DNA of 64,000 nucleotides from a bacterium. GTDB lineage: Bacteria > Patescibacteriota > Minisyncoccia > UBA6257 > 02-FULL-45-10c. Below the pieces are notes generated by a model, which made no database searches, had not been told where the DNA came from, and saw nothing but the letters and a program-made list of their open reading frames with translations. Below are positions 15,646 to 62,468 of this stretch, one piece after another (position 1 is the stretch's first letter; each line of letters opens with the position of its first letter). A program made the translations under genes and the position numbers. The stretch is from contig JAJYMK010000003.1 of NCBI GenBank assembly GCA_021786945.1, positions 151,299-215,298 of the forward strand, given 5' to 3'.

Positions 15646-15676
15646 TTAAAACCCCGCTAAGCGGGGTTTTTTGTTA
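15646..15676 (+). terminator. Rho-independent terminator after secY
   Basis: AAAACCCCGCtaaGCGGGGTTTTTTG. Confidence 0.7.
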
Positions 15677-15828
15677 TAATAAATAAAGAGATTGCAAATT
15701 CCGCGCACAACAAAGATAACAAAATTTGTATATGTGCGGTAAATATTAATAAGTCGTTTTAAATTAATAATTAATAAAAAAAACAAAGAACGAGAAAGTT
15801 TTAGTTTCAAGTCTTTGTTATTTGTAGA

Positions 15829-16506
15829 ATGAAAAAAGTTGTTTTATTTTATGGTGCTCCAGGTTCCGGTAAGGGAACTCAGGCTGATTTATTGGCGAAA
15901 AATTATGGATTTTATCATTTTGATACCGGCAAAAATATAGAGCAGACGGTTAACGACCCGGAAAATCTAAAAGATGAAAATATCAGAAAGGAAAAAGAAA
16001 TTTTTGATTCAGGAAAACTCAATACGCCTTCCTGGGTTTTGAACGATGTGGTTATTAAGAAAACTCAGAATTTGGCTAAGGCTGGTGTAAGACTTGTCTT
16101 TAGCGGTTCTCCCAGAACTCTTTTTGAGGCTTTTGGCGATGAAAAGCAGATTGGCCTTATAAAAACTTTAGAGAATTTATACGGAAAAGAAAATATTGGA
16201 ATTATGTATATTGAGGTTAAGCCGGAAACATCCGTTTTTAGAAATAGTAATAGATTGGTTTGTTCGGTTTGTGGAGCGCCGGTATTATATAAAGAAAATG
16301 GATTAACAACTTGTCCTTTTTGTGACGCACCTTTAAGAAAAAGAAGTCTCGATAATCCCGAAACCATAAAAGTAAGGCTCGAGGAGTATAAAAATAGAAC
16401 TCAGCCGATTATCGAAAAATTGAAAGAGCAGGGCTATGAAATAAACATGATCGATGGAGAGCCTGAGCCTTATAAAGTTTTTGAACAAATAAAAAATAGA
16501 ATCTAG
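15829..16506 (+). CDS. adk: Adenylate kinase (zinc-lid type)
   Basis: The P-loop GAPGSGKGTQA is present, and the Zn lid has four Cys (CSVCG...CPFCD). Confidence 0.93.
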   Translation: MKKVVLFYGAPGSGKGTQADLLAKNYGFYHFDTGKNIEQTVNDPENLKDENIRKEKEIFDSGKLNTPSWVLNDVVIKKTQNLAKAGVRLVFSGSPRTLFEAFGDEKQIGLIKTLENLYGKENIGIMYIEVKPETSVFRNSNRLVCSVCGAPVLYKENGLTTCPFCDAPLRKRSLDNPETIKVRLEEYKNRTQPIIEKLKEQGYEINMIDGEPEPYKVFEQIKNRI

Positions 16507-16508
16507 AA

Positions 16509-17267
16509 GTGCTTATTAAAACTCCAGAACAAATAAAAAAGATTAAAATTTCCGGAAAGATATTGGCTAGTGTGGCAAAAGAACTTAAGAAAAATATTGC
16601 GGAGGGCGTTGTTTTGAAGGATTTGGATATATTGGCCAGGAAATTGATTGAAGAGGCTGGTGCCGAACCGGCATTTTTGGGCTATCAGCCGCACGGAGCG
16701 GATCATCCATTTCCGGCCTCAATTTGCGCTTCTTTAAATGAGGTTGTGGTTCACGGTATTCCCAATAAATACAAACTTAAATCCGGAGATATTTTGAAGC
16801 TCGACTTTGGGGTGAGCTACCAAGGCTTTATAACAGATTCAGCTTTTACTATTGGAGTTGGGAAGATTTCCGGTGAAGCTCAAAAATTAATGGATGTTAC
16901 CAAACATTCTTTGATGCTTGGTATAAAAGAGTGCCGCGCCGGAAAAACATTGGGGGATATTGGCTGGGCAATAAATAATTATGTTCAAAAAAATGGATTC
17001 AAGGTTGTGAAGGGTCTTTGCGGCCATGGGGTGGGCATAGAACTTCACGAAGAGCCATCAGTATTTAATGAGGGTCAGAAAAATACCGGTTTAGAGCTTA
17101 GGCCGGGAATGGTACTGGCCTTGGAACCAATGGTCTCGGCGGGGGATCCGTATATAGTTCAGACTGAACAGGAAAGTTATGCTACAAGAGATGGCAGTCT
17201 TTCCGCACATTTTGAACACACAGTGCTTATTACCGAGAGAAATCCCGAGATATTGACAAATTTTTAA
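16509..17267 (+). CDS. map: Methionine aminopeptidase type I (GTG start)
   Basis: Pita-bread fold motifs: ...VHGIPN..., DFGVSYQGFITD, and metal ligands in GHGVGIELHEEP. Confidence 0.92.
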   Translation: MLIKTPEQIKKIKISGKILASVAKELKKNIAEGVVLKDLDILARKLIEEAGAEPAFLGYQPHGADHPFPASICASLNEVVVHGIPNKYKLKSGDILKLDFGVSYQGFITDSAFTIGVGKISGEAQKLMDVTKHSLMLGIKECRAGKTLGDIGWAINNYVQKNGFKVVKGLCGHGVGIELHEEPSVFNEGQKNTGLELRPGMVLALEPMVSAGDPYIVQTEQESYATRDGSLSAHFEHTVLITERNPEILTNF

Positions 17268-24688: not shown

Positions 24689-24710
24689 AGTATAATTATA
24701 TAATAAAACC

Positions 24711-25058
24711 ATGGCTTTTGGACTTATAAAATTTCCCAAAAACGATAAGCATTTTGTATGGACGGATCATTCCAAATCAAAGATGATCCAGTATTTTATT
24801 TCGGAAACAAAAATAAAGGAATTAATAAAAAAACATGAGAGGTTGGAGGAGGGCGTGGCTCCAAAAACTGTGGCAGTGATGAAAAGGAATGACAAAGGGA
24901 AGAAAAAAGAAGAAATGTGGGTTATGTATCAAAAAATTGGTGATAAAAAAACAGGGGAAAAAATGAAGATAATTTCTGTATGGAGATATCCGGGAGTGAG
25001 TCCTAAAAAAGAAATTCCGATTCCGGAAGATGTTCTTAAAGAAATCGAGAATTTATAA
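24711..25058 (+). CDS. Small hypothetical protein, possibly a DUF4258/RelE-fold toxin-like protein
   Basis: FVWTDHSKSKMIQYFISETKIKELI...KMKIISVWRY resembles the T-x-H-A-x-x-R-M...VITVY pattern. This is a weak call. Confidence 0.3.
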   Translation: MAFGLIKFPKNDKHFVWTDHSKSKMIQYFISETKIKELIKKHERLEEGVAPKTVAVMKRNDKGKKKEEMWVMYQKIGDKKTGEKMKIISVWRYPGVSPKKEIPIPEDVLKEIENL

Positions 25059-28812: not shown

Positions 28813-30318
28813 TTATTTTAAATAGAAATAAAGAGCATTGTTTTCGGATCTGTCCTTTTCTTGTCCGGGTAGAAGATAGTGGATATTTTTTTCCGCTTGT
28901 TTTTTAAATGTAAAAGTATCGGTTATAAACATAACAGTTTGTGCCGGCATAGGAATACCGCGGACATCCGTGCCGCCGGTTCCAACAATGATATACTTCA
29001 TTGCATTTTGCGGTAAAGAGTTTAATTCATTGCCCAAATCAACATAGTTTTGGCTGAACGCATCTTTTACATTCTGATTTTGGCCCCATTCCAAGAAATA
29101 ATAATTATATGTTTGAACAATGAGACATGCAGAAAGAAGGATAAATGAATTTTTTATAAATTCATCATGGCGTTTATAAAATCCGGAAAATTTATTTCTG
29201 GAAATTTCGAATAATTTATAGGCGCCTGCACCCGCCAAAACAAAAATAGGCGGAATCATAAGTATTGATCTTAATGCGTGAGGGATGCTTTCGTTGGAAA
29301 CCACTACGGGAGCTGCGGCAACCGCAATCCATGCAAATAATACCAAGAATTCCCGAGCGGTTTTTTTGAATATGTTCTTTAACCCATAAAAAAGACCAAA
29401 AAGAAAAACAAGTCCTACCGGCCAATAAAGTTCCGGCTGTCCGGAAAAGTTGTGGCGCCAATTATAATCCCCGGAAAAATTAAACATTCCTAGGGTTTTT
29501 ACAACATTTAAACCAAGGTCTCTCAGGGGTGTGGGCGAATTGAAGACGGAAATTTGGGATGTGCGTCCGAAGAAGTCCTGAGGATTTTGGGTAAAATATC
29601 CTATAAACGGAAGGACGGCTATGAAAGCGAATAAAGAAAAAACCCTGAATACTTCCCAGACATCTTGCCGCCTGTTGTTTTTCAGCCAATAGATAAAAAA
29701 GATTATTAATATCAATAATGGAGTACCGCGATAGGCAATATAAGTATAAAATCCGGCGCCATAAATCAAACCGCTGAAAGCGGCCATGAGCCAAGCCGGA
29801 TGATCGGCGTGCAGAGGCTTATTGACTGTATTATTTCTTTTTATTGCCAAAATCAGAAGATAGGCGGACCATACAAGGAAAAACGGAGCCATTATGGCCC
29901 GGAAGCCGATGCGGGAGAAATTTATGTGCCAAAAAGAAATAGCTGCGAAAAAAGAAGATAATAGACCTATTGAAGCGTTACCAAAAAGGGTTGTTCCAAA
30001 AAAATAAATTCCCAAAACAGTTAGTATGCCTATGATTGCGCTAGGCAATCTTAGTACCCATGGATAGTTTCCTAGAAATTTTATAAAAAAAGCCTGAATA
30101 TTTATGAATAATCCTTCACGGCCGTTATTTTCCGGATAAAATATTTTGAAATTACCCGTATCCAATGCTTCCAGCGCGTTGTTGCCGTTCATCGCTTCGT
30201 CGGGATAAAGGCCGGGGGGGGTAGCGTTTATTCCGCCTAAATTATAAAACCTAAAAAAAGCGGCGATGATAATTATTATCAACAAAAAAAACGTTTGTTT
30301 GGATATTTTTTTGGCCAT
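28813..30318 (-). CDS. GT-C fold membrane glycosyltransferase (PMT/ArnT-like), second copy
   Basis: ATPPGLYPDEAMNGNNALEA, followed by more than 10 TM helices, as in dolichyl-phosphate-mannose-protein mannosyltransferase and ArnT. Confidence 0.65.
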   Translation of the reverse strand: MAKKISKQTFFLLIIIIIAAFFRFYNLGGINATPPGLYPDEAMNGNNALEALDTGNFKIFYPENNGREGLFINIQAFFIKFLGNYPWVLRLPSAIIGILTVLGIYFFGTTLFGNASIGLLSSFFAAISFWHINFSRIGFRAIMAPFFLVWSAYLLILAIKRNNTVNKPLHADHPAWLMAAFSGLIYGAGFYTYIAYRGTPLLILIIFFIYWLKNNRRQDVWEVFRVFSLFAFIAVLPFIGYFTQNPQDFFGRTSQISVFNSPTPLRDLGLNVVKTLGMFNFSGDYNWRHNFSGQPELYWPVGLVFLFGLFYGLKNIFKKTAREFLVLFAWIAVAAAPVVVSNESIPHALRSILMIPPIFVLAGAGAYKLFEISRNKFSGFYKRHDEFIKNSFILLSACLIVQTYNYYFLEWGQNQNVKDAFSQNYVDLGNELNSLPQNAMKYIIVGTGGTDVRGIPMPAQTVMFITDTFTFKKQAEKNIHYLLPGQEKDRSENNALYFYLK

Positions 30319-30346: not shown

Positions 30347-30736
30347 ATGAATCAAAATTTTGAACGCAATGTATTTGAAAGAGATTTTCAGGCTTTCAGT
30401 AAGGAAATAAAAGAGCATCAGGAGAGAAATGGAATAGAAAATCTCAAGGAGGTCCATGTTAAGGATTATCTAAAATCAAAATTTACGGAATCTCAGCCGG
30501 TTTCGAAACAGCCAATGCAGATACAAGAGTCTGAATCTTTACCTGATTATCTTATTTCTGAGCCAAATGAAATAAAGGGGAGGGTTGAAAATCTCATTGC
30601 AATTGCTTTTAAAGACGGCATAGAAAGCGCAACAAAAGAAGCAAGGAAATCCGGACCGTTTATTTTGGATGCCTTTCATGATGCTTTAACATCAAAATTA
30701 TATTTGGAATTAAATAAAAGGGGCCTGCTGAAATAA
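30347..30736 (+). CDS. Hypothetical acidic protein, immediately upstream of the ATPase gene
   Basis: 129 aa, stop 2 nt before the next start. No recognised domain. Confidence 0.4.
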   Translation: MNQNFERNVFERDFQAFSKEIKEHQERNGIENLKEVHVKDYLKSKFTESQPVSKQPMQIQESESLPDYLISEPNEIKGRVENLIAIAFKDGIESATKEARKSGPFILDAFHDALTSKLYLELNKRGLLK

Positions 30737-30738
30737 AT

Positions 30739-33075
30739 ATGAATTTTTTATATATTGGTTTTGTATTTTTTATATTGTTTATCGGTGGTTACATAGTTTT
30801 TGTTTTATTTAAAAAAATAAAACACAAATATTTTCTTGATGCTTTAAAACTTAGAGCCTTATCTATAAAGATGATGCGTAAGTTTGATGAGGCTGACAAA
30901 GAGGCTTGGATGAAAGAAATTAATCAGTCCGGTCAATTAATGAGTATTTTGAGTAACTTAAAATCTCCTTTTTCTTTGGAGGTAGCGGTGAGTCATATCG
31001 GCGAGGAAATCATTTTTTATATTGCTGTTCCTGCCGATTCTGTCCAGTTTGCAATGAGGCAGATACAGGGTCTTTGGCCTGATTCACAAATTGAAGAGGT
31101 GGACGATTATAATATTTTTAACAATCAAGGATTTTCTTCTGGTATTTTTTTAAAACAAAAAAATAATGTTGTTTTGCCTTTTAGGACTTTTGAGGAAGCC
31201 AAGCTTGATACTTTTTTGCCTATTTTGAGTAATTTATCGAAAATTGAAGCATTAGGAGAGGGGGCTGCGTTACAGTTTATGGTTAAGCCGGTCCAACCAT
31301 CATTCAAAAAGAATTCTTTAAGAGTTTTGGAAAAACTAAAAAAGGGTAAAAAATTTGAAGAGGCTATAAAAGTTGAAAGCCCATTTATAACATTTAAGGA
31401 TATTAAAGAGGTCATCGCTGGTCCCGAAGAAAAGAAAAGCCAGGAAGAAAAAATAGTTATAGATGACGACACCATTAAAGCAATAGAAAAGAAGCTTTCT
31501 AAGCAGGTATTTTTGGTTAATGCTAGGCTTGTTGTGTCGGCGCCAAGTCAATTTAGAGCGGAAGAAATAATCAATAATCTTTCGGGATCTTTCGAACAGT
31601 TTAGCGCTCCTTTGAGAAACGAATTAAGACTCAGTAAGCCACGCAGCCAAAGCGATTTTATTTTTAAATTTATTTTTAGAGAATTTGATGATGGACAGGC
31701 AATGATTTTAGGGACGGATGAATTGGTTAGTTTATTTCATTTCCCGACTTCGGTTACGGAAATTCCTAAAATAAAATGGCTAAAATTCAGAGAGGTTGTT
31801 CCACCTTCAAATTTACCAAAGGACGGTGTATTAATAGGTAAGAGCATTTTCAGGAAAGATGAAAAGCCTGTATTTATAAGCGAAGAAGATAGGCGTAGGC
31901 ATATCTATATAATCGGTCAGACCGGAACCGGTAAATCAACTTTATTAAAAAATATGGCTGCAAGTGATATTGCCACTGGTAAGGGTTTGGCTATCATAGA
32001 TCCTCATGGAGATTTAGTTGAAGACGTTTTAGCTCTTATTCCGGAAAACAGAATTAATGATGTCGTTATCTTTGATCCGTCAGATGTTATGCGTCCGATA
32101 GGCTTAAATATGCTTGAATATGATTTGTCTAGACCCGAAGAAAAAACTTTTATAGTCAACGAAATTCAAAGCATTTTCAATAAATTGTTTTCCGCCGAAA
32201 GCATGGGGCCTATGTTTGAGCAATACATGCGCAATGCTTTGTTGCTTCTGATGGAAGATTCGGCCAATGAAATCCCAACATTTTTGGACGTGCCAAAGGT
32301 TTTTGTTGATTCTGATTTCAGATCGAAAAAACTGCAGCGTTGCCAGAATCCTGTTGTTAAAGATTTCTGGGAAAGAGAAGCTATTATGGTTGGAGGAGAG
32401 GCTTCTTTGCAAAATATAACTCCGTATATCACTTCAAAATTCAATAATTTTATTGCCAACGATTATATCAGGCCAATAATAAGTCAGCAAAAATCTTCCT
32501 TGAATTTCAGGGAAATGATGGATCAAGGAAAAATTCTTCTTGTAAATATGTCCAAAGGAAGAATAGGGGATATAAATGCCAGTCTTTTGGGTATGATTAT
32601 TGTCGGTAAAATTCTTATGTCTGCATTATCTCGTGCCGATATTTCAATGGAAAAAAGAAGAGATTTTAATCTTTATATTGATGAATTTCAGAATTTTACC
32701 ACTGATTCCATTTCGACTATTCTTTCGGAAGCCAGAAAGTACAGACTCAATCTTATTATCGCTCATCAATTTATAGCTCAAATTCCGGAAAAAATAAGAG
32801 ATTCCGTATTTGGCAATGTGGGTTCCACAATAGCATTTAGAGTTGGTCCAGACGATGCGGAGTATCTCGAAAAGGAATTTTCTCCTGTGTTTTCCAAAAA
32901 TGATTTGATGAATATCGATAATTTCAATGCTTATGTAAAAATTTTGATTAACAATGAAACAAGCAAGCCGTTTAATATCAAAATTATTGCTCCCCAAAAA
33001 GGAAATTCCGAGAGAAGAGATGCCATAAAAGAGATGTCGAGGGTTAAATATGGTTTCGATAGGACAATGATGTAA
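30739..33075 (+). CDS. Type IV secretion coupling-protein-like ATPase (TrwB/TraD/VirD4 AAD-binding, FtsK/HerA-superfamily P-loop), N-terminal TM anchor
   Basis: Walker A motif HIYIIGQTGTGKSTLLKNMAASDIATGKGLAIIDPHGDL, and Walker B motif FNLYIDEFQNF. 778 aa. Confidence 0.55.
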   Translation: MNFLYIGFVFFILFIGGYIVFVLFKKIKHKYFLDALKLRALSIKMMRKFDEADKEAWMKEINQSGQLMSILSNLKSPFSLEVAVSHIGEEIIFYIAVPADSVQFAMRQIQGLWPDSQIEEVDDYNIFNNQGFSSGIFLKQKNNVVLPFRTFEEAKLDTFLPILSNLSKIEALGEGAALQFMVKPVQPSFKKNSLRVLEKLKKGKKFEEAIKVESPFITFKDIKEVIAGPEEKKSQEEKIVIDDDTIKAIEKKLSKQVFLVNARLVVSAPSQFRAEEIINNLSGSFEQFSAPLRNELRLSKPRSQSDFIFKFIFREFDDGQAMILGTDELVSLFHFPTSVTEIPKIKWLKFREVVPPSNLPKDGVLIGKSIFRKDEKPVFISEEDRRRHIYIIGQTGTGKSTLLKNMAASDIATGKGLAIIDPHGDLVEDVLALIPENRINDVVIFDPSDVMRPIGLNMLEYDLSRPEEKTFIVNEIQSIFNKLFSAESMGPMFEQYMRNALLLLMEDSANEIPTFLDVPKVFVDSDFRSKKLQRCQNPVVKDFWEREAIMVGGEASLQNITPYITSKFNNFIANDYIRPIISQQKSSLNFREMMDQGKILLVNMSKGRIGDINASLLGMIIVGKILMSALSRADISMEKRRDFNLYIDEFQNFTTDSISTILSEARKYRLNLIIAHQFIAQIPEKIRDSVFGNVGSTIAFRVGPDDAEYLEKEFSPVFSKNDLMNIDNFNAYVKILINNETSKPFNIKIIAPQKGNSERRDAIKEMSRVKYGFDRTMM

Positions 33076-40546: not shown

Positions 40547-40903
40547 AAGTATTGGCACTAATAAGCCGGATTCTGTTTCGTTTAAAAACGGACAACAATT
40601 TATCTGGGCCGTTAATTACTTAACGGCTCTAGCGGCACATCCCTTGCGGGATACGGCCTTGCACTTGGGTAAGGATTTAGCCGTTTCACCCCAGCTTTTT
40701 TGTCTCTATAGCTGGATTAGACCAATTAGCTTGAGATTAGGTCTGCCCGATCTTTTCAAAACGGGCCGTCACTGCTCGCACCTCTATATTACTATCGATG
40801 GGTGTTACCCACTACCCCGCTCTTTGTTGCAAGCAACAAAGAAGTGTCCGGACTTTCCTCTCCGGTTAAAAACCGAAGCTGTTGTTTAAGGTACCAATAC
40901 TTT
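40545..40903 (-). ncRNA. rnpB: RNase P RNA, bacterial type A
   Basis: The minus strand contains the P4 5' strand GAGGAAAGUCCGGACAC, GGGUAACACCC, ...GCCCAGAUAAAUUGUUGUCCG...ACAGAAUCCGGCUUAUUAG, and a P1 helix (AAGUAUUGGUAC pairing with GUGCCAAUACUU). Each has a clear counterpart in E. coli M1 RNA. Confidence 0.9.
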
Positions 40904-49979: not shown

Positions 49980-51083
49980 ATGTTGGCTATCTACAGAAAA
50001 TATCGTCCTAAAAAACTTTCTGAATTGCTGGGTCAGGAGCATATTATTGAGGTTCTAAAAAATTCCGCCAGGCAAAATAGGTTCGCCCATGCTTATTTGT
50101 TTTATGGTTCTAGAGGTTCGGGCAAAACGACAACCGCTCGTCTTTTGGCTAAACTTGTTAATTGCGAAAAAAGAATAAAAGACGAAAAATTTAGGGAAAA
50201 AGGAGAGCCTTGTAATGAATGCCGGGCTTGTACCGAAATAGATTCAAACCAAGCCTTGGATGTTGTAGAAATTGATGCGGCTTCAAACAGGGGTATAGAC
50301 GAAATCAGGGATTTAAAAGAAAGTATAAAGCTATCCCCCATTTATTTGTCTAAAAAAGTTTATATTATCGATGAGGTTCACATGCTTACTCGTGAAGCGT
50401 TTAATGCTCTTTTGAAAACATTGGAGGAGCCTCCGGCACATGCAATTTTTATTTTGGCTACAACGGAATATGAAAAACTTCCCGCCACAATTTCTTCCAG
50501 AACGCAAAAATTTAATTTTAAGAAATTATCCATTGCTGATATTTTGAAGAAATTGAATAGCGTTGTAAAAGCTGAAAAAATAAAAATTTCCGATGAAGCC
50601 TTGGAACTGATTGCTTCGTTGGGCGAAGGCAGTTTTCGCGATGCTGAATCGCTTTTGGATCAGATAGCTTCTATGGACTCAGATATTGAGCTTAAAGATG
50701 TAGAAAAAATTGTCGGGAAAATCGGCTATAAAAAAACTGCGGAATTGGCCGGGCTACTGCTTTCCGGTGATTTAGATAAGTCATTAAGTTATTTATCTCA
50801 GATAAATGAAGAGGGATATAATTTGGTTCAATTTAATAAAGACTTAATTCATTATTTGAGACGTGCATTAGCTTTGAAGCTTAGCCCGAAGGTAGAAGAA
50901 TTTTACAAAAAAGAACTTACTTCCGATAATTTAGAAGGTTTGAGGAAAAATTCCCTTTTGATAAATCCGGAAAAGCATATAAATCTTTTAAAATCTTTTA
51001 TTCGTGCATATTCGGAAATGCGCTATTCCCCGTTTCCTATTGCCCCATTGGAAGTCGCTGTTATAGAAAATCTAAAAAAATAA
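49980..51083 (+). CDS. dnaX: DNA polymerase III gamma/tau subunit (short, gamma-like)
   Basis: RPKKLSELLGQEHI...HAYLFYGSRGSGKTTTARLLAK...C-x-EC-xx-C zinc module, and DEVHMLT (Walker B). Confidence 0.88.
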   Translation: MLAIYRKYRPKKLSELLGQEHIIEVLKNSARQNRFAHAYLFYGSRGSGKTTTARLLAKLVNCEKRIKDEKFREKGEPCNECRACTEIDSNQALDVVEIDAASNRGIDEIRDLKESIKLSPIYLSKKVYIIDEVHMLTREAFNALLKTLEEPPAHAIFILATTEYEKLPATISSRTQKFNFKKLSIADILKKLNSVVKAEKIKISDEALELIASLGEGSFRDAESLLDQIASMDSDIELKDVEKIVGKIGYKKTAELAGLLLSGDLDKSLSYLSQINEEGYNLVQFNKDLIHYLRRALALKLSPKVEEFYKKELTSDNLEGLRKNSLLINPEKHINLLKSFIRAYSEMRYSPFPIAPLEVAVIENLKK

Positions 51084-51087
51084 CCCG

Positions 51088-51112
51088 AAAATCGGGTTAT
51101 TTTTATAATTGA
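51088..51112 (+). terminator. Rho-independent terminator after dnaX
   Basis: AACCCGAaaaTCGGGTTATTTTTAT. Confidence 0.6.
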
Positions 51113-51185
51113 CTTTTTCTAAAAATAATGATATTATATGTATTAGTTATTTTGGATTGAAAATTTAATAAAATTAGGAGGGTGT

Positions 51186-51887
51186 ATGAATAAGATATGG
51201 GCGGCTGTACTGATATTTGTGTTTATTCCAGCGTTTAATTCTCAAGTAAGCGCTGAGATTAAAATTCTGGATATTGAGCTTCCGGAAACGGAAATTTCAA
51301 CATCAACACTTGTAAGCGAAGATGTTGTGATTTATACCGGAGAAAAATTGGAGAGGCCGAAATTAAGCATTGCGCTTGGTTTGGGCAATGGCTATAAACT
51401 TGGCGATCAAAAAGATGGACGTTATCATTATGATAATAGTTCTGTCATTTCTCTTCAATTTGGATATTTACCTTCAAAATATTTAGAAGTTCAGGGTGAA
51501 TATTCCAGAGTTGGAAATTTTTATCGCAAAAGATCATGGGGTGAGCAAAATCAAAGATTTAATAGTTATGGATTAAATCTTAAATTAAAAAGACCCTTGA
51601 TGTTTGATTCGATAAAATTATTTCCTTATATAGTAGTAGGTATGGGAAAAAACAGAATGACTTACTGCGGCATAGATACCGGAAAAAATTTCAGTTATTC
51701 CGGATTTGGAAATTACAGAAAAATAGGAGTAGGGGCTGAAGTTGACTTAAATAGGGATTTTTTTCTGTTTTCTGAATATAACTACTATAAAATGGGTTTA
51801 ATTACCTTCCGTCTTAAAAGCGGAAAGGAAGTCAAAAACTTCCCATATTATTCAGTAGTTTTTTCCGGAATTGGAATTAAATTCTAA
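51186..51887 (+). CDS. Secreted protein with outer-membrane beta-barrel-like features
   Basis: Signal peptide (MNKIWAAVLIFVFIPAFNSQVSA). Alternating hydrophobic, Gly/Tyr-rich strands (SIALGLGNGYKLG, FGYLPSKYLEVQGEY). C-terminal ...GIGIKF ends in Phe. Confidence 0.45.
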   Translation: MNKIWAAVLIFVFIPAFNSQVSAEIKILDIELPETEISTSTLVSEDVVIYTGEKLERPKLSIALGLGNGYKLGDQKDGRYHYDNSSVISLQFGYLPSKYLEVQGEYSRVGNFYRKRSWGEQNQRFNSYGLNLKLKRPLMFDSIKLFPYIVVGMGKNRMTYCGIDTGKNFSYSGFGNYRKIGVGAEVDLNRDFFLFSEYNYYKMGLITFRLKSGKEVKNFPYYSVVFSGIGIKF

Positions 51888-51902
51888 AGTAGCTAAAATC
51901 TA

Positions 51903-51935
51903 AAACCCGCATTTTTCAAAATGCGGGTTTTTTAT
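51903..51935. terminator. Strong bidirectional terminator between convergent genes
   Basis: AAAACCCGCATTTTtcAAAATGCGGGTTTTTTATTT. Confidence 0.7.
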
Positions 51936-51940: not shown

Positions 51941-54900
51941 TTAATTTTTCTGACATTCACCAGAAGATGAACATGTATATCCTTCATCACACGTTCCGCA
52001 ACTTATCATTCCCCCGCAAACCGGATCGGTCATATTTCCACACTCCCTTTTACTTTTATTAGCAGTTACACAAATGCTTGAAATATTCGGGACGCACACG
52101 CAATTATTATTGATACATTGTTCTTGTTTTGTCGTATTACAAATTTTTGGACCAAGCACGCTTTGATTTTTAACGGGACTGCAATTAGTAGTAGATTGTA
52201 AAAGTGTTCCGCATGTATTTGATGTAATAGCTGGACTCCAAATTGGCGTAAGAGTTCCCGATACATTGTATTTTCTAACTCCGCAATTACTTATTTGAGT
52301 AAGTGTTGATCCTTGGCAAACAGTTGAATCAGGCGGTGACCAGATTGAGTCGGTGCAAGTAAAAGCCGTTCCACCAACTGATTCTTCATAGCTATTTTCG
52401 TCTCCAGCAATAACTATTGAAAACTTATCCATATTTCCTTCTGCCGCAATAAACCAGGTGGGATCAATGTAGCAGCTCCCCCCTTCAAATTTAAGAGTAC
52501 TCCAATCATAGTTTGAAATACTAAAACAATAATGTTTTATTCCATTTACTGATACATAAACATTATAGCCGGTTGCTAAATCGCCGGAAACGGAGTTTAT
52601 AGTAAGCTTTCCTGATGTTAAATCAAAATTTAATGGATTAATTGTCACCGGTCCTGGTTCTGGATATGTTATCCTGAACCCATTTTTTAAAGTTGATTGA
52701 GTCAGGATATTGTTATTTGCATCTTTCATGACAACTTTAACGTCGAATAGTCCTGTAGTAACTGCGCTAATATCGCAAACGCCATTTGTTATTTCCGTAG
52801 AACTTGCAAATTTAAAACCTGAACAATTAATTAAATCATTAGCGCCTGGATTTATCAGTGCCACTTCTATTTTTACGGGAGGCGGCAAAAATCCTGCGCC
52901 GTAAATGGATATATTTTCAATTTTATTTTGATAGTTCAAACCATCAGTAGTTACTATTATTCCATCGCTTGAACCGAGGCTATTTTTAGCTCGAATTGTA
53001 TATGAAAGTTTTTGTTGTGGGGTTTCCTTGAATTTATTGTCGTCGAAAGAAGTTGTTGTTCTTTGTATTTCAGTTGTGCTTCCTACGCCACTTCTGGTGA
53101 TAATATATTCTAAATTTTCCCCACCTAAATTTAAAGGTGGATCCCATGACAAAGAAAACCCCCTATTTATTGGAATGATTTTGACATTTCTTGGATTAGA
53201 TGGCTTACTTTTTGTGGTATACACTAAAGAAGTGGGTACTGTATCTTCTATTCTTGAGCAGCCGGACAAGGATGCTTGCATTGTTCCACAAATTATTGTT
53301 TTAAGATGAATAGTTGGATTGCCCCATTCGGAATTATAGTCAACTTGCCTCATAGATCCACTAAAATAACCGTAATTGGCATAACTTGCGCCGCTAGGAA
53401 GACTGAATTTAATCTCATCCAGTGATTTATAAACCCATAAACTATCTAGGCCACAATTAGCGCAATAATTGTATCCCATATAGCCAATATGATACGGAAA
53501 ACAAATTCCATAATGATCAACGCAGTTGCCGGATAACGTACAACAAGAATTTGCATTTTGCTTTGTAAATGTAGATCCGCTTTCGGCACAGCTTGGTTTT
53601 GCTCCCCAGCAACTACTTCCTCTTCCGCCTAAAACATTTGGAGAGTTATACATTGTCCCATTCTTCCAAATAGGAAATGAATCTATAGAAGCTTTTATGT
53701 AGCCATTAGAATTTAAGCAGTTTAGCAAGGATTCCATAGTTTTCGTTGTTGCTTCTGTTTGTGTTTTGTAAGAACCCTGCCAATTAATATCCTCGGACGA
53801 TCTTAAAGAATCTGTTGGTGTAAGATACACAGATCCGTCTGGAGCAACGTATTTGCTTACAAATGGCGAACAAATATATTTTGCTTCTGGATTGGTACAC
53901 GGTATCCCAATAGCTTGTGGGCAATATCTGCGATAAACTACTTTATCAAATTTTATAGCTTTATATTCTATAGGACTTGGGCTTGCATTTATTTCCCCGC
54001 TTTGAGAGCTAGCCCCAACATTATTTTTTGCGGCAATTTTATAATAATAAGTGGCTCCATTTATTACGGCGGTATCCACATAGTTCAAAACATTTCCAAT
54101 TTCAATTGGACTGGAATTGAATTGCCCAGAAACCTCACTTTTATAGATGAGGTAACCAGTAATTGGACTTCCCCCGTCTTTTGTGGGAGAGTTCCAATTT
54201 AATGAAACTTGGGCATTTTCACTGTTGGCAGAAAAATTTTGAGGAATTTCCGGAGCTATGGCAAAGGGCGTAGCATCTGCTTCGCTGCTTTGAGTTCCAA
54301 TGCCTTTTGTATTTTTTGCGGCAATTTTATAAAAATATTTTGTACCGTTAGAAACAGTTGTGTCCGTATAGGTTAATACGTTTGCTGTTTCGGTCAAAAG
54401 CGTTTCTCCGCCAGAAGCGGTTCCTCTATAAATTTCATAATTAGTTATAGCATCACCGCCGTTATTAATTGGAGCTGCCCAGGAAAGAGAAGCTTGAGAA
54501 TTTTCACTTACAACGATTAAATTTTGCGGAGCATCTGGGCTGGAAATGGTAAATGCAGAAAAAGTTGGAACCACGATATGGCTAACATCGTAACAGTTTT
54601 TACCATTTATATCACATCTTGTTTTAGTAATATCAATTATTGGCGGGAGGAATGTTGGATACATAACTCTATCCTGGCCAATAATATCGAGTTTTCCGTA
54701 TGTCCAAATCTGAAATTCAGGGGTGTTTTCGAGGATGGTGTACCACCGTCCCGTCCAACCATATTGCAGACATTTTTTTTTCAAATTATTGATACTTTCA
54801 TCAATAGCTTGAGCTTGTGAGTTGAAGGTTTTTACTTCTGGCCCACCATATTTTGTAACGTCTAAGCAGGAATCATCATTCGATCTAAGAAAGCGTGAAT

Positions 54901-54982
54901 TTTTGTAAAAAGTATCTGCGTTAACCGAAAACGGATTTATTAATAAAGCTCCGACTAATAATAATAAATTTTTTTTATTCAT
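51941..54982 (-). CDS. Large secreted surface protein (1013 aa) with at least 3 fibronectin type III repeats and a Cys-rich C-terminal region
   Basis: Signal peptide MNKKNLLLLVGALLINPFSVNA. Repeated FN3 units (...PQNLIVVSENSQASLSWAAPINNGGDAITNYEIYRG...KYFYKIAAKNTKG...). The C-terminal 120 aa are Cys-dense. Confidence 0.7.
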   Translation of the reverse strand: MNKKNLLLLVGALLINPFSVNADTFYKNSRFLRSNDDSCLDVTKYGGPEVKTFNSQAQAIDESINNLKKKCLQYGWTGRWYTILENTPEFQIWTYGKLDIIGQDRVMYPTFLPPIIDITKTRCDINGKNCYDVSHIVVPTFSAFTISSPDAPQNLIVVSENSQASLSWAAPINNGGDAITNYEIYRGTASGGETLLTETANVLTYTDTTVSNGTKYFYKIAAKNTKGIGTQSSEADATPFAIAPEIPQNFSANSENAQVSLNWNSPTKDGGSPITGYLIYKSEVSGQFNSSPIEIGNVLNYVDTAVINGATYYYKIAAKNNVGASSQSGEINASPSPIEYKAIKFDKVVYRRYCPQAIGIPCTNPEAKYICSPFVSKYVAPDGSVYLTPTDSLRSSEDINWQGSYKTQTEATTKTMESLLNCLNSNGYIKASIDSFPIWKNGTMYNSPNVLGGRGSSCWGAKPSCAESGSTFTKQNANSCCTLSGNCVDHYGICFPYHIGYMGYNYCANCGLDSLWVYKSLDEIKFSLPSGASYANYGYFSGSMRQVDYNSEWGNPTIHLKTIICGTMQASLSGCSRIEDTVPTSLVYTTKSKPSNPRNVKIIPINRGFSLSWDPPLNLGGENLEYIITRSGVGSTTEIQRTTTSFDDNKFKETPQQKLSYTIRAKNSLGSSDGIIVTTDGLNYQNKIENISIYGAGFLPPPVKIEVALINPGANDLINCSGFKFASSTEITNGVCDISAVTTGLFDVKVVMKDANNNILTQSTLKNGFRITYPEPGPVTINPLNFDLTSGKLTINSVSGDLATGYNVYVSVNGIKHYCFSISNYDWSTLKFEGGSCYIDPTWFIAAEGNMDKFSIVIAGDENSYEESVGGTAFTCTDSIWSPPDSTVCQGSTLTQISNCGVRKYNVSGTLTPIWSPAITSNTCGTLLQSTTNCSPVKNQSVLGPKICNTTKQEQCINNNCVCVPNISSICVTANKSKRECGNMTDPVCGGMISCGTCDEGYTCSSSGECQKN

Positions 54983-57746: not shown

Positions 57747-58013
57747 TTATTTTTGTTTTTTACGGCCCTTTAAATTATTAAAAAAATTTACAAAATGCTT
57801 TACTTTGGCGCCTTCGGTTTTAACATTCTGTCTGAGTTCCGCAATATCTTCTTTAATTAGCCCTGCCTCATCTTTTGCTTTTTCCGAAATATCGTCAACA
57901 TTTCTTAGGATTCGTATGAGGTAAGTGATTAATATACCTAAAAGAATTGTTAGTATCACTACCGCGATAGATGTGATAAAAAAGAATATTTCAGATTTCA
58001 TTAAAGAGTCCAT
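57747..58013 (-). CDS. Small hypothetical membrane protein (single N-terminal TM, charged helical tail)
   Basis: ORF only. Confidence 0.35.
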   Translation of the reverse strand: MDSLMKSEIFFFITSIAVVILTILLGILITYLIRILRNVDDISEKAKDEAGLIKEDIAELRQNVKTEGAKVKHFVNFFNNLKGRKKQK

Positions 58014-58052
58014 TTTTTTATATTTTAGATATTGTTATTATTATAAACCAGT

Positions 58053-58529
58053 TTATTTTTTTAACAACAAGAAGATTAGGATAGCTACTATTATCGCCTG
58101 AGAGGATATTGTAATAATTTTATTTGTTACGACAGAATGAATTTTTTTATGAATTTCTGAATGTTTGTTTAGGGCCTTTGTAAAAATATTTCTTTCTTTA
58201 TTTTTAATGCAATAGTTTAAAAAAGCTAAGCCATCGGGAAGTATTGCAAAAAAAGCTCCTGTTAAAGCCAGTAATATTTCGCTTGAATTTTTATTCTGAA
58301 TTAAATATAAAATCGTAAGCAGCCCGATTGATAAATCGATAAAGATTTTGACAAATTCTTTTCCGGCGGATTTAAAATCCCCGTGTGTTATATTCTCTAT
58401 TTTATATTCAACATGAGGAATAGAATCTAAAAAATAATGACTGGTTAAGCCTAAAACTATTGCTGCGCCTACACTTCCACTGTTTGTTGCCAATACCGCT
58501 CCCGTTATTGAATGAACCGATAAAATCAT
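58053..58529 (-). CDS. Membrane protein, possibly a YdjM-like membrane-bound metal-dependent hydrolase
   Basis: MILSVHSITGA...SHYFLDSIPH... with multiple TM helices. This is a weak family guess. Confidence 0.35.
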   Translation of the reverse strand: MILSVHSITGAVLATNSGSVGAAIVLGLTSHYFLDSIPHVEYKIENITHGDFKSAGKEFVKIFIDLSIGLLTILYLIQNKNSSEILLALTGAFFAILPDGLAFLNYCIKNKERNIFTKALNKHSEIHKKIHSVVTNKIITISSQAIIVAILIFLLLKK

Positions 58530-58615
58530 ATGTTTTTTAAGTCTTTATATTATAACAAATACATTGGAATTTTAGAAAAATTGTGATAATATTTTTAAAT
58601 ATTCGTCGGTTTTAT

Positions 58616-58686
58616 TGCCGGGTCGTCTAACGGTAGGACATCGCCCTTTGGAGGCGAGTATCGGGGTTCGAGTCCCTGCCCGGCAG
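58616..58686 (+). tRNA. tRNA-Gln (anticodon UUG)
   Basis: Cloverleaf: acceptor TGCCGGG pairs with CCCGGCA. D-arm GTCT...GGAC. Anticodon stem TCGCC/GGCGA with loop cTTTGGa (anticodon TTG). T-arm CGGGG-TTCGAGT-CCCTG. Discriminator G, no encoded CCA. An extended -10 (TGTGATAAT) lies about 30 nt upstream. Confidence 0.85.
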
Positions 58687-58689
58687 CTC

Positions 58690-59397
58690 CTAAGTTTGCA
58701 GTTTATATAATTCTTCTAACGCTATAACATGGCTACAAATTTTTTTCTGTGTAAAAAAATCACAATCACAAAGCCATTGATTGTCTCGTTTTATTAAATT
58801 TCTAGTACCGTGTTCGGCATCTATTGTGGCTTTTTCTAATTCTATTTTGAATCTTCTGGGTTCATTTATATATTTTTTAGCTTTAATAATTTTTCCGATT
58901 AAATCCTCAACAAATTTTTGATTTAATTCCCTATTATTTTCAGTTAATTCAATTAATATTATATCCTTTCTTTTTTTAATATTTTCAATAAAATCGTCAC
59001 TATATATTTTAGATAAAGTTACTAAACAAATATTGGGAGAATTTAATATTAAATTGGTTGCTTTTTTAAATTTTTCTGAATAAAGTTCCATTTGTCCAAT
59101 CTCATCTAAATATAAAAGATCCCCTTCTTTAAATTGAAGTATTTCGGGAATGACTAATTCTAGATTGTTTATATCTACAAAATATCTTGAAACTTTATAT
59201 TCTGTTAAAAAATTAACACTTGCGAGCATGGCCTTTTTGCCGGTGCTGGTTACTATTTCAAAACCAACCCTTTCGCCATTTTCGCGAACTTCGTTAGTAA
59301 CAAATCCAACTTTGTTTGGATAACTCAAAATGACTTTATTTAAGAGTGTAGACTTACCACTTCTTGGCATTCCCGTAACAATAATATTTTTTCTCAT
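58690..59397 (-). CDS. THEP1-like NTPase fused to a C-terminal SWIM zinc finger
   Basis: Walker A IIVTGMPRSGKSTLLNKV, Walker B LLYLDEIGQMEL, and C-terminal W-x-CDCDFF...CSHVIA (CxC...CxH SWIM). The track ORF extends to 59478 across the 32-bp repeat; I prefer the start at M28 (59397). Confidence 0.6.
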   Translation of the reverse strand: MRKNIIVTGMPRSGKSTLLNKVILSYPNKVGFVTNEVRENGERVGFEIVTSTGKKAMLASVNFLTEYKVSRYFVDINNLELVIPEILQFKEGDLLYLDEIGQMELYSEKFKKATNLILNSPNICLVTLSKIYSDDFIENIKKRKDIILIELTENNRELNQKFVEDLIGKIIKAKKYINEPRRFKIELEKATIDAEHGTRNLIKRDNQWLCDCDFFTQKKICSHVIALEELYKLQT

Positions 59398-59438
59398 TAG
59401 ATAAATATTATCACATTTGTACGGCTTCTTTTTCTTTG

Positions 59439-59470
59439 AAAAAGGTTCCAACTTCGTCCCAGACGGCCAG
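59439..59470 (+). repeat. 32-bp direct repeat, copy 1: AAAAAGGTTCCAACTTCGTCCCAGACGGCCAG
   Basis: Identical 32-mer also at 60113-60144 and 63049-63080, same orientation, all intergenic. Confidence 0.9.
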
Positions 59471-59536
59471 CAAATCAATCCCCTATTTTTAAATCAAAAC
59501 TATTGATATAATTTTTGTATTAAATTTTTAAAAATT

Positions 59537-60088
59537 ATGAATAATATTTTTAAATCTAAAATCAAAAGAGAAATTGTCAATTTTTTAACCGGCGAAAAAT
59601 ATGAAATGCTTGGTGGCTTAGACATGTCTTTTTCGGAAGATGATGTTAAAAAGATTACAAAAATATGTTCCCAAAAAGATGCTTACGATATTTTATTTAA
59701 AAATAGATTAAGCGGAAAGCCTTATACAGAAAAAAATGCCCGGAGTTTTATAGATTGGATTAAAGACGGTTGGAAAAATCAAACTCATTTTGTGTTTTTG
59801 ATAAGAAAACAAGATTCGGAGATAATTGGCGCCATTGATATAAAAAGCCCCGATCTTAATAGGGCTGAGATTGGATATTGGGCTGATGAAAATTATAGAG
59901 GTTTTATGACAAGCGCTGTAAATGAATTATTTTTTATAGCAAAAGAAAGTGGTTATATTAAATTATTTGCCGGAGTTTTGGCTAAAAACAATAAATCTAT
60001 TGCCGTATTAGAACGTACTGGTTTTAGGAAGGTAAAAGAAGATAAAAAAGACGGCGAAGATCATTTCATATACGAAAAAGAATTATAA
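59537..60088 (+). CDS. GNAT family N-acetyltransferase (RimJ/RimL-like)
   Basis: ...HFVFLIRKQDSEIIGAIDIKSPDLNRAEIGYWADENYRGFMTSAVNELFFIAKESGYIKLFAGVLAKNNKSIAVLERTGF: GNAT motifs A/B. Confidence 0.75.
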   Translation: MNNIFKSKIKREIVNFLTGEKYEMLGGLDMSFSEDDVKKITKICSQKDAYDILFKNRLSGKPYTEKNARSFIDWIKDGWKNQTHFVFLIRKQDSEIIGAIDIKSPDLNRAEIGYWADENYRGFMTSAVNELFFIAKESGYIKLFAGVLAKNNKSIAVLERTGFRKVKEDKKDGEDHFIYEKEL

Positions 60089-60098
60089 TCTTAGCTTA

Positions 60099-60839
60099 GT
60101 GATTACCTTCAAAAAAAGGTTCCAACTTCGTCCCAGACGGCCAGAATACACCATAAAAGACGGCGTTGTTTTGGAATCAGAGCTAATAAAAAATCGTTTT
60201 TTTGATTCTAAACAAATTAAGAATTTAAAAGAATCAGTTGAGTGGAGAAGCGTTCCCTTATTTAATATGAATTACCCGATTAATCTTTATATATTATCAA
60301 AACACCCAGAAATAATTTCTAAAGAAGATTATAAAAAGTTTTTAAGACAATCACTTGAGAGAATAAAATTAGGCGTTTTAAAAGCAGAGGAAAATGTTAA
60401 GGGGGATGGACATAATTATTTAGAAATTACAAATAACTATGCCGGTAAGAGCATATGGTTTTCAGAAGAACGGGTAGTAAAAGAAGGAGATGATAAATAT
60501 AAAAAAATATCAGAATATGCTGAAAAATTTGTTAAAGATTTATTTGATCAGAATTCATCTAAATATGTGGGTATAACAAAGGATGAATATCAATTGAGTA
60601 ATGAGATATTAGAATATATAGAAAAATTAATTAATAATATAGAGATAGCCTCAAAAAATAAAGATGTTTTTAAAATTAAATATTTAGTTGCATCTATTTT
60701 TTTAACATTTATAATTTCTTTGATTGTTAGTTGGTTTGTAAAAATAAACGCATTTATTATTTTTATAGTCGTTCAAATAGTTACTTTTTTTCAGGCTTTT
60801 ATTGGTGGCTGGATAGATAAAAAAATTAAAAAAAGATAA
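60099..60839 (+). CDS. Hypothetical protein with two C-terminal TM helices (start uncertain)
   Basis: The ORF from a GTG at 60099 contains repeat copy 2. An internal ATG at 60267 (MNYPINLY...) is a more likely start. Confidence 0.35.
   Translation: MITFKKRFQLRPRRPEYTIKDGVVLESELIKNRFFDSKQIKNLKESVEWRSVPLFNMNYPINLYILSKHPEIISKEDYKKFLRQSLERIKLGVLKAEENVKGDGHNYLEITNNYAGKSIWFSEERVVKEGDDKYKKISEYAEKFVKDLFDQNSSKYVGITKDEYQLSNEILEYIEKLINNIEIASKNKDVFKIKYLVASIFLTFIISLIVSWFVKINAFIIFIVVQIVTFFQAFIGGWIDKKIKKR
60113..60144 (+). repeat. 32-bp direct repeat, copy 2
   Basis: Identical to copy 1. Confidence 0.9.
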
Positions 60840-60875
60840 ATCCCATTCCTTTGTAAAAATAGGTATTCAGGTATC

Positions 60876-61700
60876 ATGAATAAAGTTTTTAAATCACAAG
60901 AAGAATTAAAAAAAGAATTAGATTCACAATTCAAACTTCTAAAAGTTTTAACCGAGCAATATGACAAAGGCGATGTGATTATAGGAAAGTCGATAGCGAC
61001 TTCTATTCGGGTACTTGTTCATGACACAGATGATTCGCGCTCTTTGCTTGGGCAACTTAATTTTAAAAATAGAAAATTTTTTGACACGGCCTGCCCCGAC
61101 ATCTTTCCTGTACCAGGAAAAATTCAGCGTATTGGAAGTTTTTGTGGCTTAGTAAGTATCGGTAGCGTTAATAATGAGCAGACTTATATCCCCTATCTTG
61201 ATGAGGCTCCTGTTAAAAAATTTGGTTTTGTAAATTTTGATGAGTTTTGGAATAGGATAATTTTTATTGATAATAATAAAAACAGCTTTACAAGAAAAGA
61301 AATAGTTTTGGCTATTGCTAACCAAGATGGTGGTGCGCACGTTGATCCAAAAATTGAAAAAAAATACAAAGAGTTATCTAGAGAGAATTCTCTTGGTTGG
61401 AAAGCTAGTTTAGACGGAAAAATTTGGAATGATTCATGCGGTTCTGAGCTGGCTGCAGTACGTCAAATCGCACATGAGTTACTGCGCACATTTGAGATCG
61501 AATATCCTTATAAAAAAATGGTGACCGGTGATGCCGGATTTATTTTAGGTGGAATGGGTTTTATAATTAGTAATACCACCGATGTAAATAGTATTACGGA
61601 TTATTTGGTGAATAAGAAAAAAATTGGACCAAATAAAAAATGTCTATGCGGAAGTGGTCAGAAATATAAAAAATGTCATGGAAAGTATGGTTGGATATAA
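60876..61700 (+). CDS. SEC-C motif domain protein (C-terminal CxC...CH metal-binding motif) with an unknown N-terminal domain
   Basis: C-terminus KKCLCGSGQKYKKCHGKYGW is a SecA-C/YecA-type SEC-C motif. I recognise no family for the N-terminal domain of about 250 aa. Confidence 0.55.
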   Translation: MNKVFKSQEELKKELDSQFKLLKVLTEQYDKGDVIIGKSIATSIRVLVHDTDDSRSLLGQLNFKNRKFFDTACPDIFPVPGKIQRIGSFCGLVSIGSVNNEQTYIPYLDEAPVKKFGFVNFDEFWNRIIFIDNNKNSFTRKEIVLAIANQDGGAHVDPKIEKKYKELSRENSLGWKASLDGKIWNDSCGSELAAVRQIAHELLRTFEIEYPYKKMVTGDAGFILGGMGFIISNTTDVNSITDYLVNKKKIGPNKKCLCGSGQKYKKCHGKYGWI

Positions 61701-61718
61701 TTTTATAAAATTATATTT

Positions 61719-62468
61719 TTATGCCTTACTATTTCTAGATAATACTTCATTTAATTTATAACAAAATTCAGAATTAAAAACTGGTTCTATATATGTATCA
61801 TCTAGGTATTTTTTTAATCCGGCTAAATTTTCAATTATATAAACAAGGGGCTCTATTCGTTCAATAACTTTAGATTTGCCAACCAACAAAATAGCCTTCC
61901 TTGATTTAATTACTATTCCTTGTTTTTCGAGATAATTAATTAATTTTAGTTCGTGTCTATTAATTTCATCGATTGGATTTTGCCATTTATTTAATTCACA
62001 AATACATTTATTTCCTTTACACCACTCTTCTTTAAAAAATTTATCGCCCAAAACTCTGAAATTGCCAGATATATTTTTAATTTCAAATATCAATAAACCT
62101 TTCTTACCAACTACAATTGCATCAATATCAAATCCTCCATCTGAAAATTTAAAATTTTTATAAATTTTATAACCCTCATTATTTGGCAAGAGCTCTTCTA
62201 ATTTTTTAAAGGCCCTTCTTTCACCCATCCATCCCATAAGAGAATGCAATGAAATAAGTCCCAATCTATCCCCTAATCGTCCCATAAAAATCCAAAACCA
62301 AGAAAATATAATTCCGAATATTATTCCAGCGATAAATAATAAAGCTGGAACGTCTAGTTTAAAATCTTTTAAATTAGTAAGACCATATAAAATTACTGAT
62401 ATACCAAATAGCAATAAAGCTATTACTATAATTGTTACTTGCAAAAATTTACGTTTAGAATAAGACAT
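61719..62468 (-). CDS. NERD (nuclease-related domain) protein with two N-terminal TM helices
   Basis: GERRAFKKLEELLPNNEGYKIYKNFKF...GGFDIDAIVVGKKGLLIFEIKNISGNF...WQNPIDEINRHELKL: NERD pattern. Confidence 0.6.
   Translation of the reverse strand: MSYSKRKFLQVTIIVIALLLFGISVILYGLTNLKDFKLDVPALLFIAGIIFGIIFSWFWIFMGRLGDRLGLISLHSLMGWMGERRAFKKLEELLPNNEGYKIYKNFKFSDGGFDIDAIVVGKKGLLIFEIKNISGNFRVLGDKFFKEEWCKGNKCICELNKWQNPIDEINRHELKLINYLEKQGIVIKSRKAILLVGKSKVIERIEPLVYIIENLAGLKKYLDDTYIEPVFNSEFCYKLNEVLSRNSKA

Follow-up and report, generated by a model that had tools for sequence, protein, structure and literature searches.

In a 64-kb stretch of bacterial DNA (contig JAJYMK010000003.1; hereafter the window), the gene at positions 51186-51887 encodes what is with high probability a small eight-stranded outer-membrane beta-barrel, of the class represented by Pfam OMP_b-brl and by proteins such as OmpX, NspA and the N-terminal domain of OmpA. 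The source organism, to judge from its marker genes, is a Parcubacteria-type member of the Patescibacteria or candidate phyla radiation (CPR), a group treated as having no outer membrane (PMC6744442, PMC7137472, PMC12102498). The protein is a known fold, in a lineage that is not supposed to have it, within a previously undescribed pilus/adhesin gene module. We found no report in the literature of outer-membrane proteins (OMPs) or beta-barrel proteins in CPR.

The gene is an ATG-initiated open reading frame (ORF) of 233 codons plus stop on the plus strand (protein P0001), with boundaries exactly where an earlier note on this DNA had placed them. The protein it encodes comprises a signal peptide, a disordered linker and the barrel (Table 1). 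By sequence inspection, the N-terminus, MNKIWAAVLIFVFIPAFNSQVSA followed by EIK after the predicted cleavage site, has the n/h/c layout recognized by signal peptidase I (SPase I): a basic n-region (MNK), a 14-residue hydrophobic core and V-S-A at positions -3 to -1. The family alignment described below keeps the N-terminal hydrophobic segment, followed by N-A-Q/E. Residues 67-204 match PF13505 (OMP_b-brl) with 42.3 bits, above the gathering cut-off of 28.7 (E = 1.2e-10); this is the sole Pfam match above cut-off, a single further match being sub-threshold and unrelated. NCBIfam and PDB sequence searches with the protein gave no match. Provided with a 36-sequence family alignment, AlphaFold2 (AF2) modelled residues 57-233 with a predicted local distance difference test score (pLDDT) of ~97, as eight long antiparallel strands (residues 60-74, 85-97, 100-116, 119-135, 143-164, 167-187, 192-209 and 215-233). 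When this model was compared with the PDB by Foldseek, all 47 matches at E < 1e-3 were outer-membrane barrels, among them OmpA, NspA, Ail, OmpW, OmpX, OprG, Pla/OmpT and Thermus TtoA.

We scored membrane character on the family alignment, using DSSP strand boundaries to define 33 outward and 33 inward positions. Outward positions are 86% hydrophobic, 1% charged and 25% aromatic, and aromatic residues cap both ends of each ~11-residue outward stripe, forming girdles round a hydrophobic belt. At inward positions, 16% of residues are hydrophobic, 30% charged and 24% glycine, and R91, E101, E105, N131, K133, K179, D/E185, E197 (invariant) and K232 are conserved there alongside many glycines. The barrel lumen is thus probably narrow and salt-bridged, resembling that of OmpA or OmpX, rather than a pore. 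At the end that carries the termini, the turns are conserved and short, with medians of 2, 7 and 4 residues; at the opposite end, four long hairpins (medians of 11, 19, 31 and 12 residues) vary between members, reach up to 39 residues and carry a net positive charge. The C-terminal strand ends in the G-x-x-hydrophobic-x-Phe pattern of a beta-signal: across the family, position -5 is glycine in 97%, position -2 is hydrophobic in 89% and the last position is phenylalanine in 34 of 36 members (94%) and aromatic in 97%.

Several claims of the earlier note are borne out by these results. It had described a signal peptide, amphipathic beta-strand periodicity, a composition rich in glycine, tyrosine and aromatic residues, and a C-terminal phenylalanine; the mature protein contains 11.0% Gly, 8.6% Tyr and 6.7% Phe and ends in GIGIKF. 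Its proposal of an OMP-like barrel, for which it had pointed to PF13505, agrees with the profile match, the eight modelled strands and the Foldseek matches. The soluble beta-sandwich that it offered as a fallback does not survive. Soluble eight-stranded barrels such as avidins, YceI and lipocalin-like proteins need a hydrophobic interior and a polar exterior, and this pattern is reversed in the window protein. We therefore reject a soluble fold on the basis of the hydrophobic exterior, the charged and glycine-filled interior, the beta-signal and the outer-membrane barrels among the structural matches.

Five features of OMP_b-brl membership are present together: the Pfam score, a Sec signal (by inspection), a closed eight-stranded barrel, a hydrophobic belt and a beta-signal. 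Within this class, the protein represents an isolated sub-family. NspA, Opa, OmpX and Ail of Proteobacteria are likewise small eight-stranded barrels, but the window protein has no match to Pfam Ail_Lom, Opacity or OmpX and no sequence match in the PDB. Its family further differs from them in an N-terminal linker of 3-81 residues, in a host lineage believed to lack both an outer membrane and the machinery for beta-barrel assembly (BAM), and in a gene that is fixed beside those of giant Cys-rich proteins and minor pilins. Diderm PF13505 proteins, including the 'porin III' associated with the Legionella Dot/Icm system (PDB 9nh2), similarly differ in lineage and in gene neighbourhood. Unlike the proteins containing the OmpA N-terminal domain (PF01389) or that of OprF, the window protein stops at the last barrel strand, and the absence of a C-terminal OmpA-like peptidoglycan-binding domain rules out the OmpA family; the window protein has no match to PF01389 (OmpA_membrane), and only one of the 36 family members touches that model.

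We also considered barrels with enzymatic or secretory functions. The catalytic residues of PagL form a His-Ser-Glu triad; the 36-member alignment has no conserved catalytic residues and no conserved His/Ser set, and we rejected the outer-membrane barrel enzymes (PagL, PagP, OMPLA and omptins), including a lipid A-modifying PagL-like protein. Translocators of autotransporter and two-partner secretion systems are 12- or 16-stranded barrels with a passenger that is fused or encoded in the same operon. We rejected this assignment as well: the window barrel has eight strands and a lumen filled with glycine and charged residues, and the neighbouring giant protein is encoded on the opposite strand with its own signal peptide. 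The barrel is therefore probably neither a pore nor an enzyme. In the Myxococcus Glt/Cgl gliding platform, which belongs to a true diderm with BAM, small outer-membrane barrels retain the Cys-rich surface adhesin CglB. The likeness to the window module is a functional analogy only, in that both pair a small barrel with a Cys-rich surface protein; one family member reaches E 0.06 against NCBIfam gliding_CglE (13 bits against a cut-off of 70), a far sub-threshold score from which we claim no homology.

Marker genes support the assignment to CPR. The best match of the window's EF-Tu, at 85% identity, is to a Patescibacteria metagenome-assembled genome (JBBTPY01), and the next ~25 matches are mostly to CPR (Portnoy-, Kaiser-, Campbell-, Parcu-, Moranii-, Adler-, Yonath-, Paceibacterota and similar). 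On the plus strand, the gene for ribosomal protein S5 (13373-13945) is directly followed, after a 4-nt gap, by that for L15 (13950-14357), so there is no L30 gene. A missing L30 is a hallmark of CPR as a whole. The earlier note's premise of a CPR-type organism, from a lineage generally scored as monoderm, accordingly agrees with both the marker genes and the literature. The window also carries a str/S10/spc-type ribosomal protein cluster, peptidoglycan genes (FtsW, MurG, MraY, a PBP5-type carboxypeptidase and an M23 peptidase), ScpA/B, PGK, BipA, RNase P RNA and a DUF87/TrwB-type (VirB4-like) ATPase.

The barrel gene is native to this genome. On the longest contig that carries it (696,638 bp), it lies between CPR dnaX and BipA, and the same neighbourhood is present on nine contigs from independent assemblies (Logan, ENA and NCBI). 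Its GC content is 0.332 against 0.356 for the window, and its relative synonymous codon usage correlation of 0.74 is within the housekeeping range (0.59-0.91). The recurring neighbourhood, the matching GC content and the typical codon usage together indicate that the gene is neither part of a chimera nor a recent import.

The barrel gene is also a predicted self-contained transcription unit, with its own promoter, Shine-Dalgarno sequence and terminator (Table 1). The upstream dnaX (49980-51083) has a terminator hairpin at 51076-51104, 5' of the barrel-gene promoter. The hairpin that follows the barrel gene has a folding free energy of -18.7 kcal/mol (z = -6.5; none of 200 shuffles equally good) and may also serve the convergent giant gene on the minus strand, as its position and an upstream A-run suggest.

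The family is small. An exhaustive HMMER profile search of 1.84 billion cluster representatives (clusters at 50% identity) recovered only 36 proteins at E <= 1e-3, all with the same layout and with no ordinary diderm OMP among them; PF13505 matches 32 of the 36 at E <= 1e-3. Word-indexed protein search is insensitive for this barrel, giving two matches with the single protein and five with the 36-member profile. Five columns of the alignment are invariant (P137, G154, G181, G183 and E197), and 13 further columns are conserved at >=90%. A scan of the GTDB species representatives found no relative of the barrel, so the taxonomic spread of the family cannot be read from named genomes. There are also no barrel relatives in IMG/VR, and we rejected a phage origin of the gene on this basis. 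One copy of the P0002 barrel gene of the family (locus L006, 100-939, +) lies directly 3' of an IS1595-family transposase, unlike its other copies, which hints at occasional mobility.

Conservation in the linker is independent of conservation in the barrel. A motif, P-x-KEELQKI...IKV-x-x-G..EPE (in a shorter form, KEELQKI...IKVPxG), is common to the linkers of loci L002 and L095 and of the second barrel of locus L096, which are 55-62% identical compared with 31-37% for the attached barrels. The linker thus looks like a shuffled, separately selected module, and its conserved motif suggests a binding segment. The idea that linker type tracks the type of partner giant is not supported: these three linkers share the motif, yet the giant of L095 has its nearest counterpart in the other giant of L096.

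We recovered nine distinct genomic contexts of the barrel gene; a metagenome scan with a four-sequence alignment gave six loci. In eight of the nine contexts, the barrel gene is tail-to-tail with a gene for a large secreted protein. These partner giants vary in length and domain content: 1013 amino acids with fn3 domains in the window, 1714 with a subtilase domain in L002, 769 in L007, 645 in L008, a fragment in L094 and at least 520 in L095. Locus L096 has two tandem barrel-giant pairs, with giants of 1408 (Fib_succ_major and fn3) and at least 1278 amino acids (subtilase and fn3). This tandem duplication (5786-16654) includes the whole barrel and giant pair, and the two barrels are 32% identical; pair units may diversify together. 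The giants share C-terminal halves, the window giant being 34% identical to that of L007 over 439 residues (E 4e-48) and also matching that of L008 (E 3e-26). The only domains that we could recognize in them are fn3, S8 and Fib_succ_major, with no recognisable wall or membrane anchor.

All partner giants end in a Cys-rich CG..CGG..C (..G.C) module, for which we found no Pfam match. The same module forms a C-terminal extension of prepilin-type (GFTLIEL) proteins encoded in the adjoining regions of L002 (7530-8636, -), L007 (6213-6839, -) and L008 (3832-4923, -). The module is thus presented in two ways, by free giants or by subunits of the pilus. In six loci (L002, L007, L008, L095, L096 and L098), the barrel gene has type IV (minor) pilin-like genes as neighbours, and in L008 the pilin cluster runs on into a prepilin peptidase (PilD), a pilin and PilC.

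We observed a further conserved component directly 5' of the giant gene and apparently co-transcribed with it: a small single-pass membrane protein, with homologues in L096 (11065-11583, -) and L008 (3365-3796, - and 1-421, -). These proteins of 143-173 amino acids have a Lys-rich N-terminus, one transmembrane helix and a ~120-residue outer domain, and the window protein is 31-35% identical to those of L096 and L008 (E 1e-12 to 1e-23). The protein has no Pfam or NCBIfam family and no homologue by word-indexed search, and AF2 run on its sequence alone gave a model too poor to use (pLDDT 51). One conceivable role is that of a membrane anchor or chaperone for the giant itself. The window contains a reduced version of the module, consisting of the small membrane protein, the giant and the barrel. 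These arrangements are kept between barrels that are only 25-35% identical, which implies that the linkage is old and selected. We consider it likely, with considerable confidence, that the barrel is linked to an adhesin/pilus module.

Table 1. Predicted features of the barrel gene and its convergent neighbours (positions in the window).
Feature	Position	Strand	Basis
Promoter, sigma-70-type (TTGACT-17 nt-TATTAT, extended -10 TG)	51109..51137	+	10/12 matches, best in region; consensus match only
Shine-Dalgarno sequence AGGAGG, 4 nt 5' of ATG	51176..51181	+	Read from sequence
Barrel gene, 233 amino acids plus stop	51186..51887	+	ORF, Pfam match, AF2 model
Sec (SPase I) signal peptide, residues 1-23, predicted cleavage VSA/E	51186..51254	+	Sequence inspection
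Acidic disordered N-terminal linker, 33 residues (24-56)	51255..51353	+	pLDDT ~47-52
Eight-stranded transmembrane beta-barrel, residues 57-233	51354..51884	+	AF2 model
C-terminal beta-signal-like strand, ...VVFSGIGIKF	51855..51884	+	Family alignment
Intrinsic terminator hairpin, 13-bp stem	51902..51931	.	Between two convergent genes; only the plus-strand call tested
Convergent partner giant, 1013 amino acids, signal peptide, two fn3 domains	51941..54982	-	C-terminal half common to giants of other family loci
Cys-rich C-terminal module of giant, last ~130 residues, ...ECGNMTDPVCGGMISCGTCDEGYTCSSSGECQKN	51944..52333	-	CG..CGG..C motif
Small single-pass membrane protein, 173 amino acids	54987..55508	-	Directly 5' of giant gene, apparently co-transcribed

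What might such a barrel do in a CPR cell? We propose that, once exported via Sec, it would have to enter a bilayer although the cell has no known BAM machine, and that it would serve a pilus-linked module for host attachment as an anchor or docking element embedded in lipid. We assign this anchor or adhesion role tentatively, rating it a little short of an even chance, and by analogy with the small barrel adhesins and anchors of diderms (Opa, NspA, Ail, OmpX and the OmpA N-terminal domain). Cultivated CPR bind their hosts by means of type IV pili and of minor pilins that carry large C-terminal domains (PMC11623550, PMC9894109), Gram-negative cells serve some CPR as hosts to attach to or as prey (PMC8080830, PMC11393006), and small OMPs fold into bilayers spontaneously in vitro with no machinery (PMC7383365). 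Our leading guess for the bilayer – which we still regard as unlikely – is the outer membrane of the host where the two cells touch; insertion into a host membrane was also an option in the earlier note. The barrel would there offer the symbiont's Cys-rich adhesins and pilus tip a firm point of attachment. The strict beta-signal and the classical asymmetry of turns and loops also leave room for an Omp85-type machine, either the host's or an undetected one of the symbiont's own, which may be involved.

A low probability attaches to a more far-reaching pair of options, in which the barrel would be either a receptor planted by the symbiont in the outer membrane of a Gram-negative host or a resident OMP in a Parcubacteria clade with an outer lipid layer. 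A planted receptor would expose its variable hairpins as a docking site for the Cys-rich giant adhesins and the pilins of the pilus tip, and possible folding by the host's BAM would explain why the beta-signal is strictly kept. Such a strategy would be like that of Tir and intimin, here between two bacteria.

Several points weigh against this proposed reading or limit it. A canonical beta-signal, short turns and long variable loops fit a protein assembled by BAM in the producer's own outer membrane and are awkward to reconcile with outside insertion into a host membrane. The barrel and giant genes are convergent, so they are not co-transcribed, and a physical interaction between the two proteins is something we infer from synteny only. 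One locus (L011) has no giant partner, and there is no pilin gene within the 64 kb of the window. We take the other loci of the family to be CPR on gene content and sample type (groundwater 0.2-um filtrate) rather than on marker phylogeny. Finally, our Pfam scan for envelope genes covered ~50 window ORFs and omitted the remaining ribosomal-operon ORFs, and the window is itself ~9% of a genome of at least 697 kb.

One alternative, which we judge improbable, places the barrel in the cytoplasmic membrane of the CPR cell itself, or in membrane vesicles or tubes; inserted from the outer side, it would be a cis anchor that holds the giant via the exposed N-terminal linker. This membrane is the nearest bilayer after Sec export, the giants have no recognisable anchor of their own, and the separate conservation of the linker is as expected for a cis-side binding segment. 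Thin or defect-rich bilayers let small barrels fold spontaneously (PMC7383365), and the membranes of CPR have an unusually high content of lysolipids (PMC7242380); this lysolipid content and the curvature of tiny cells would aid insertion. However, the long, charged and net positive hairpins would have to cross an energised membrane to reach the cytoplasm, and their variability would be hard to explain there. The small single-pass protein co-encoded with the giants could already anchor them, and no OMP-type barrel is known to us from the cytoplasmic membrane of any bacterium.

A second alternative, also rather improbable, is that a Parcubacteria clade possesses its own outer lipid layer, in which the barrel is a resident OMP that is assembled from the periplasmic side and tethers or presents the giants with its hairpins facing outward. 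Taken alone, the protein is most economically read in this way: it keeps all the classical OMP hallmarks (the beta-signal with its terminal phenylalanine, short cis-side turns, long trans-side hairpins and aromatic girdles), and its closest structures are all resident OMPs. The family is moreover ancient in the lineage, having the same synteny down to ~25% identity and a native composition. Against this reading, none of the ~50 scanned window ORFs matched Omp85/BamA, POTRA, LptD, TolC, secretin, Lol or lipopolysaccharide families in Pfam – so that the search for BamA/Omp85 proposed in the earlier note was negative within this part of the genome – and the type IV pilus cluster of L008, with PilC, PilD and pilins, has no secretin within 8 kb.

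Evidence from CPR at large also argues against an outer lipid layer. In studies that include surveys of thousands of CPR genomes, there is no PilQ and no TonB-ExbBD (PMC6744442), OMP-type phage receptors average 0.3 genes per genome and cryo-electron microscopy reveals no outer membrane (PMC7137472), and CPR have been placed in a monoderm clade with Chloroflexi (10.1101/2021.05.31.446380). Further, a monoderm-type type IV secretion system is reported to be near-universal in Patescibacteria (PMC12102498), and the window carries a VirB4-like ATPase of the type described for such systems. This 778-amino-acid DUF87/TrwB-type protein (30347-33075, +), which is preceded by a 129-amino-acid ORF, resembles the VirB4 of monoderm-type systems.

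The remaining explanations fare worse. In one of them, which we rate as very unlikely, the OMP gene was left over in evolution or gained by horizontal transfer and its product has no membrane to enter; this product would be tolerated or degraded, and the synteny would be incidental. The rarity of the family, its absence from the GTDB species representatives and the transposase beside the L006 copy speak for this explanation. It is contradicted by the strong predicted promoter, Shine-Dalgarno sequence and terminator, by intact ORFs with invariant and highly conserved columns, by native codon usage, by synteny that is kept between members ~25-30% identical and by the tandem barrel-giant duplication; nor is there a close diderm donor, the exhaustive profile search having returned only this family. 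A soluble secreted beta-barrel or beta-sandwich (avidin-, lipocalin- or YceI-like) that is OMP-like in composition only is effectively refuted by the Foldseek matches and the inward/outward residue pattern, and its probability is close to nil. For an assembly or binning artefact, in which a Gram-negative fragment was chimerically joined to CPR sequence, we found no supporting point, and the gene's place on the 697-kb contig, its recurrence on nine contigs and its matching composition leave this explanation a negligible probability.

Other features of the window are recorded here as separate observations. Two large polytopic membrane proteins (22799-24739, - and 28813-30318, -), one a PMT_2-type glycosyltransferase and the other similar with no Pfam match, have a possible role in glycosylating surface proteins or pilins. 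The class A RNase P RNA (40548-40897, -) scores barely over the Rfam gathering threshold (104.6 against 100 bits), as a divergent version. The region at 58000-62000, beside a tRNA-Gln gene (58616-58687), has a GC content of 0.29 against 0.35 for the window and encodes an NTPase, a GNAT acetyltransferase and a NERD nuclease, together with several products that belong to no family; an element may have integrated here at the tRNA gene.

CPR account for roughly a quarter of the diversity of bacteria and spend their lives attached to other cells, and the mechanism by which they hold their hosts is largely unknown beyond a few cultivated Saccharibacteria. They are also central to arguments about the gain and loss of outer membranes, because they are scored as monoderm and OMP-free. 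The barrel protein is small, easily made recombinantly and has defined candidate partners, so the question of its destination is directly testable. A native, conserved and canonical barrel made by CPR needs a place to insert – a host membrane, the cell's own membrane without BAM, or an unseen outer layer – and each of these would be informative, about mechanisms of symbiosis, BAM-independent barrel biogenesis or envelope evolution, respectively. An outer lipid layer with resident OMPs would, if true, overturn the view of all CPR as monoderm.

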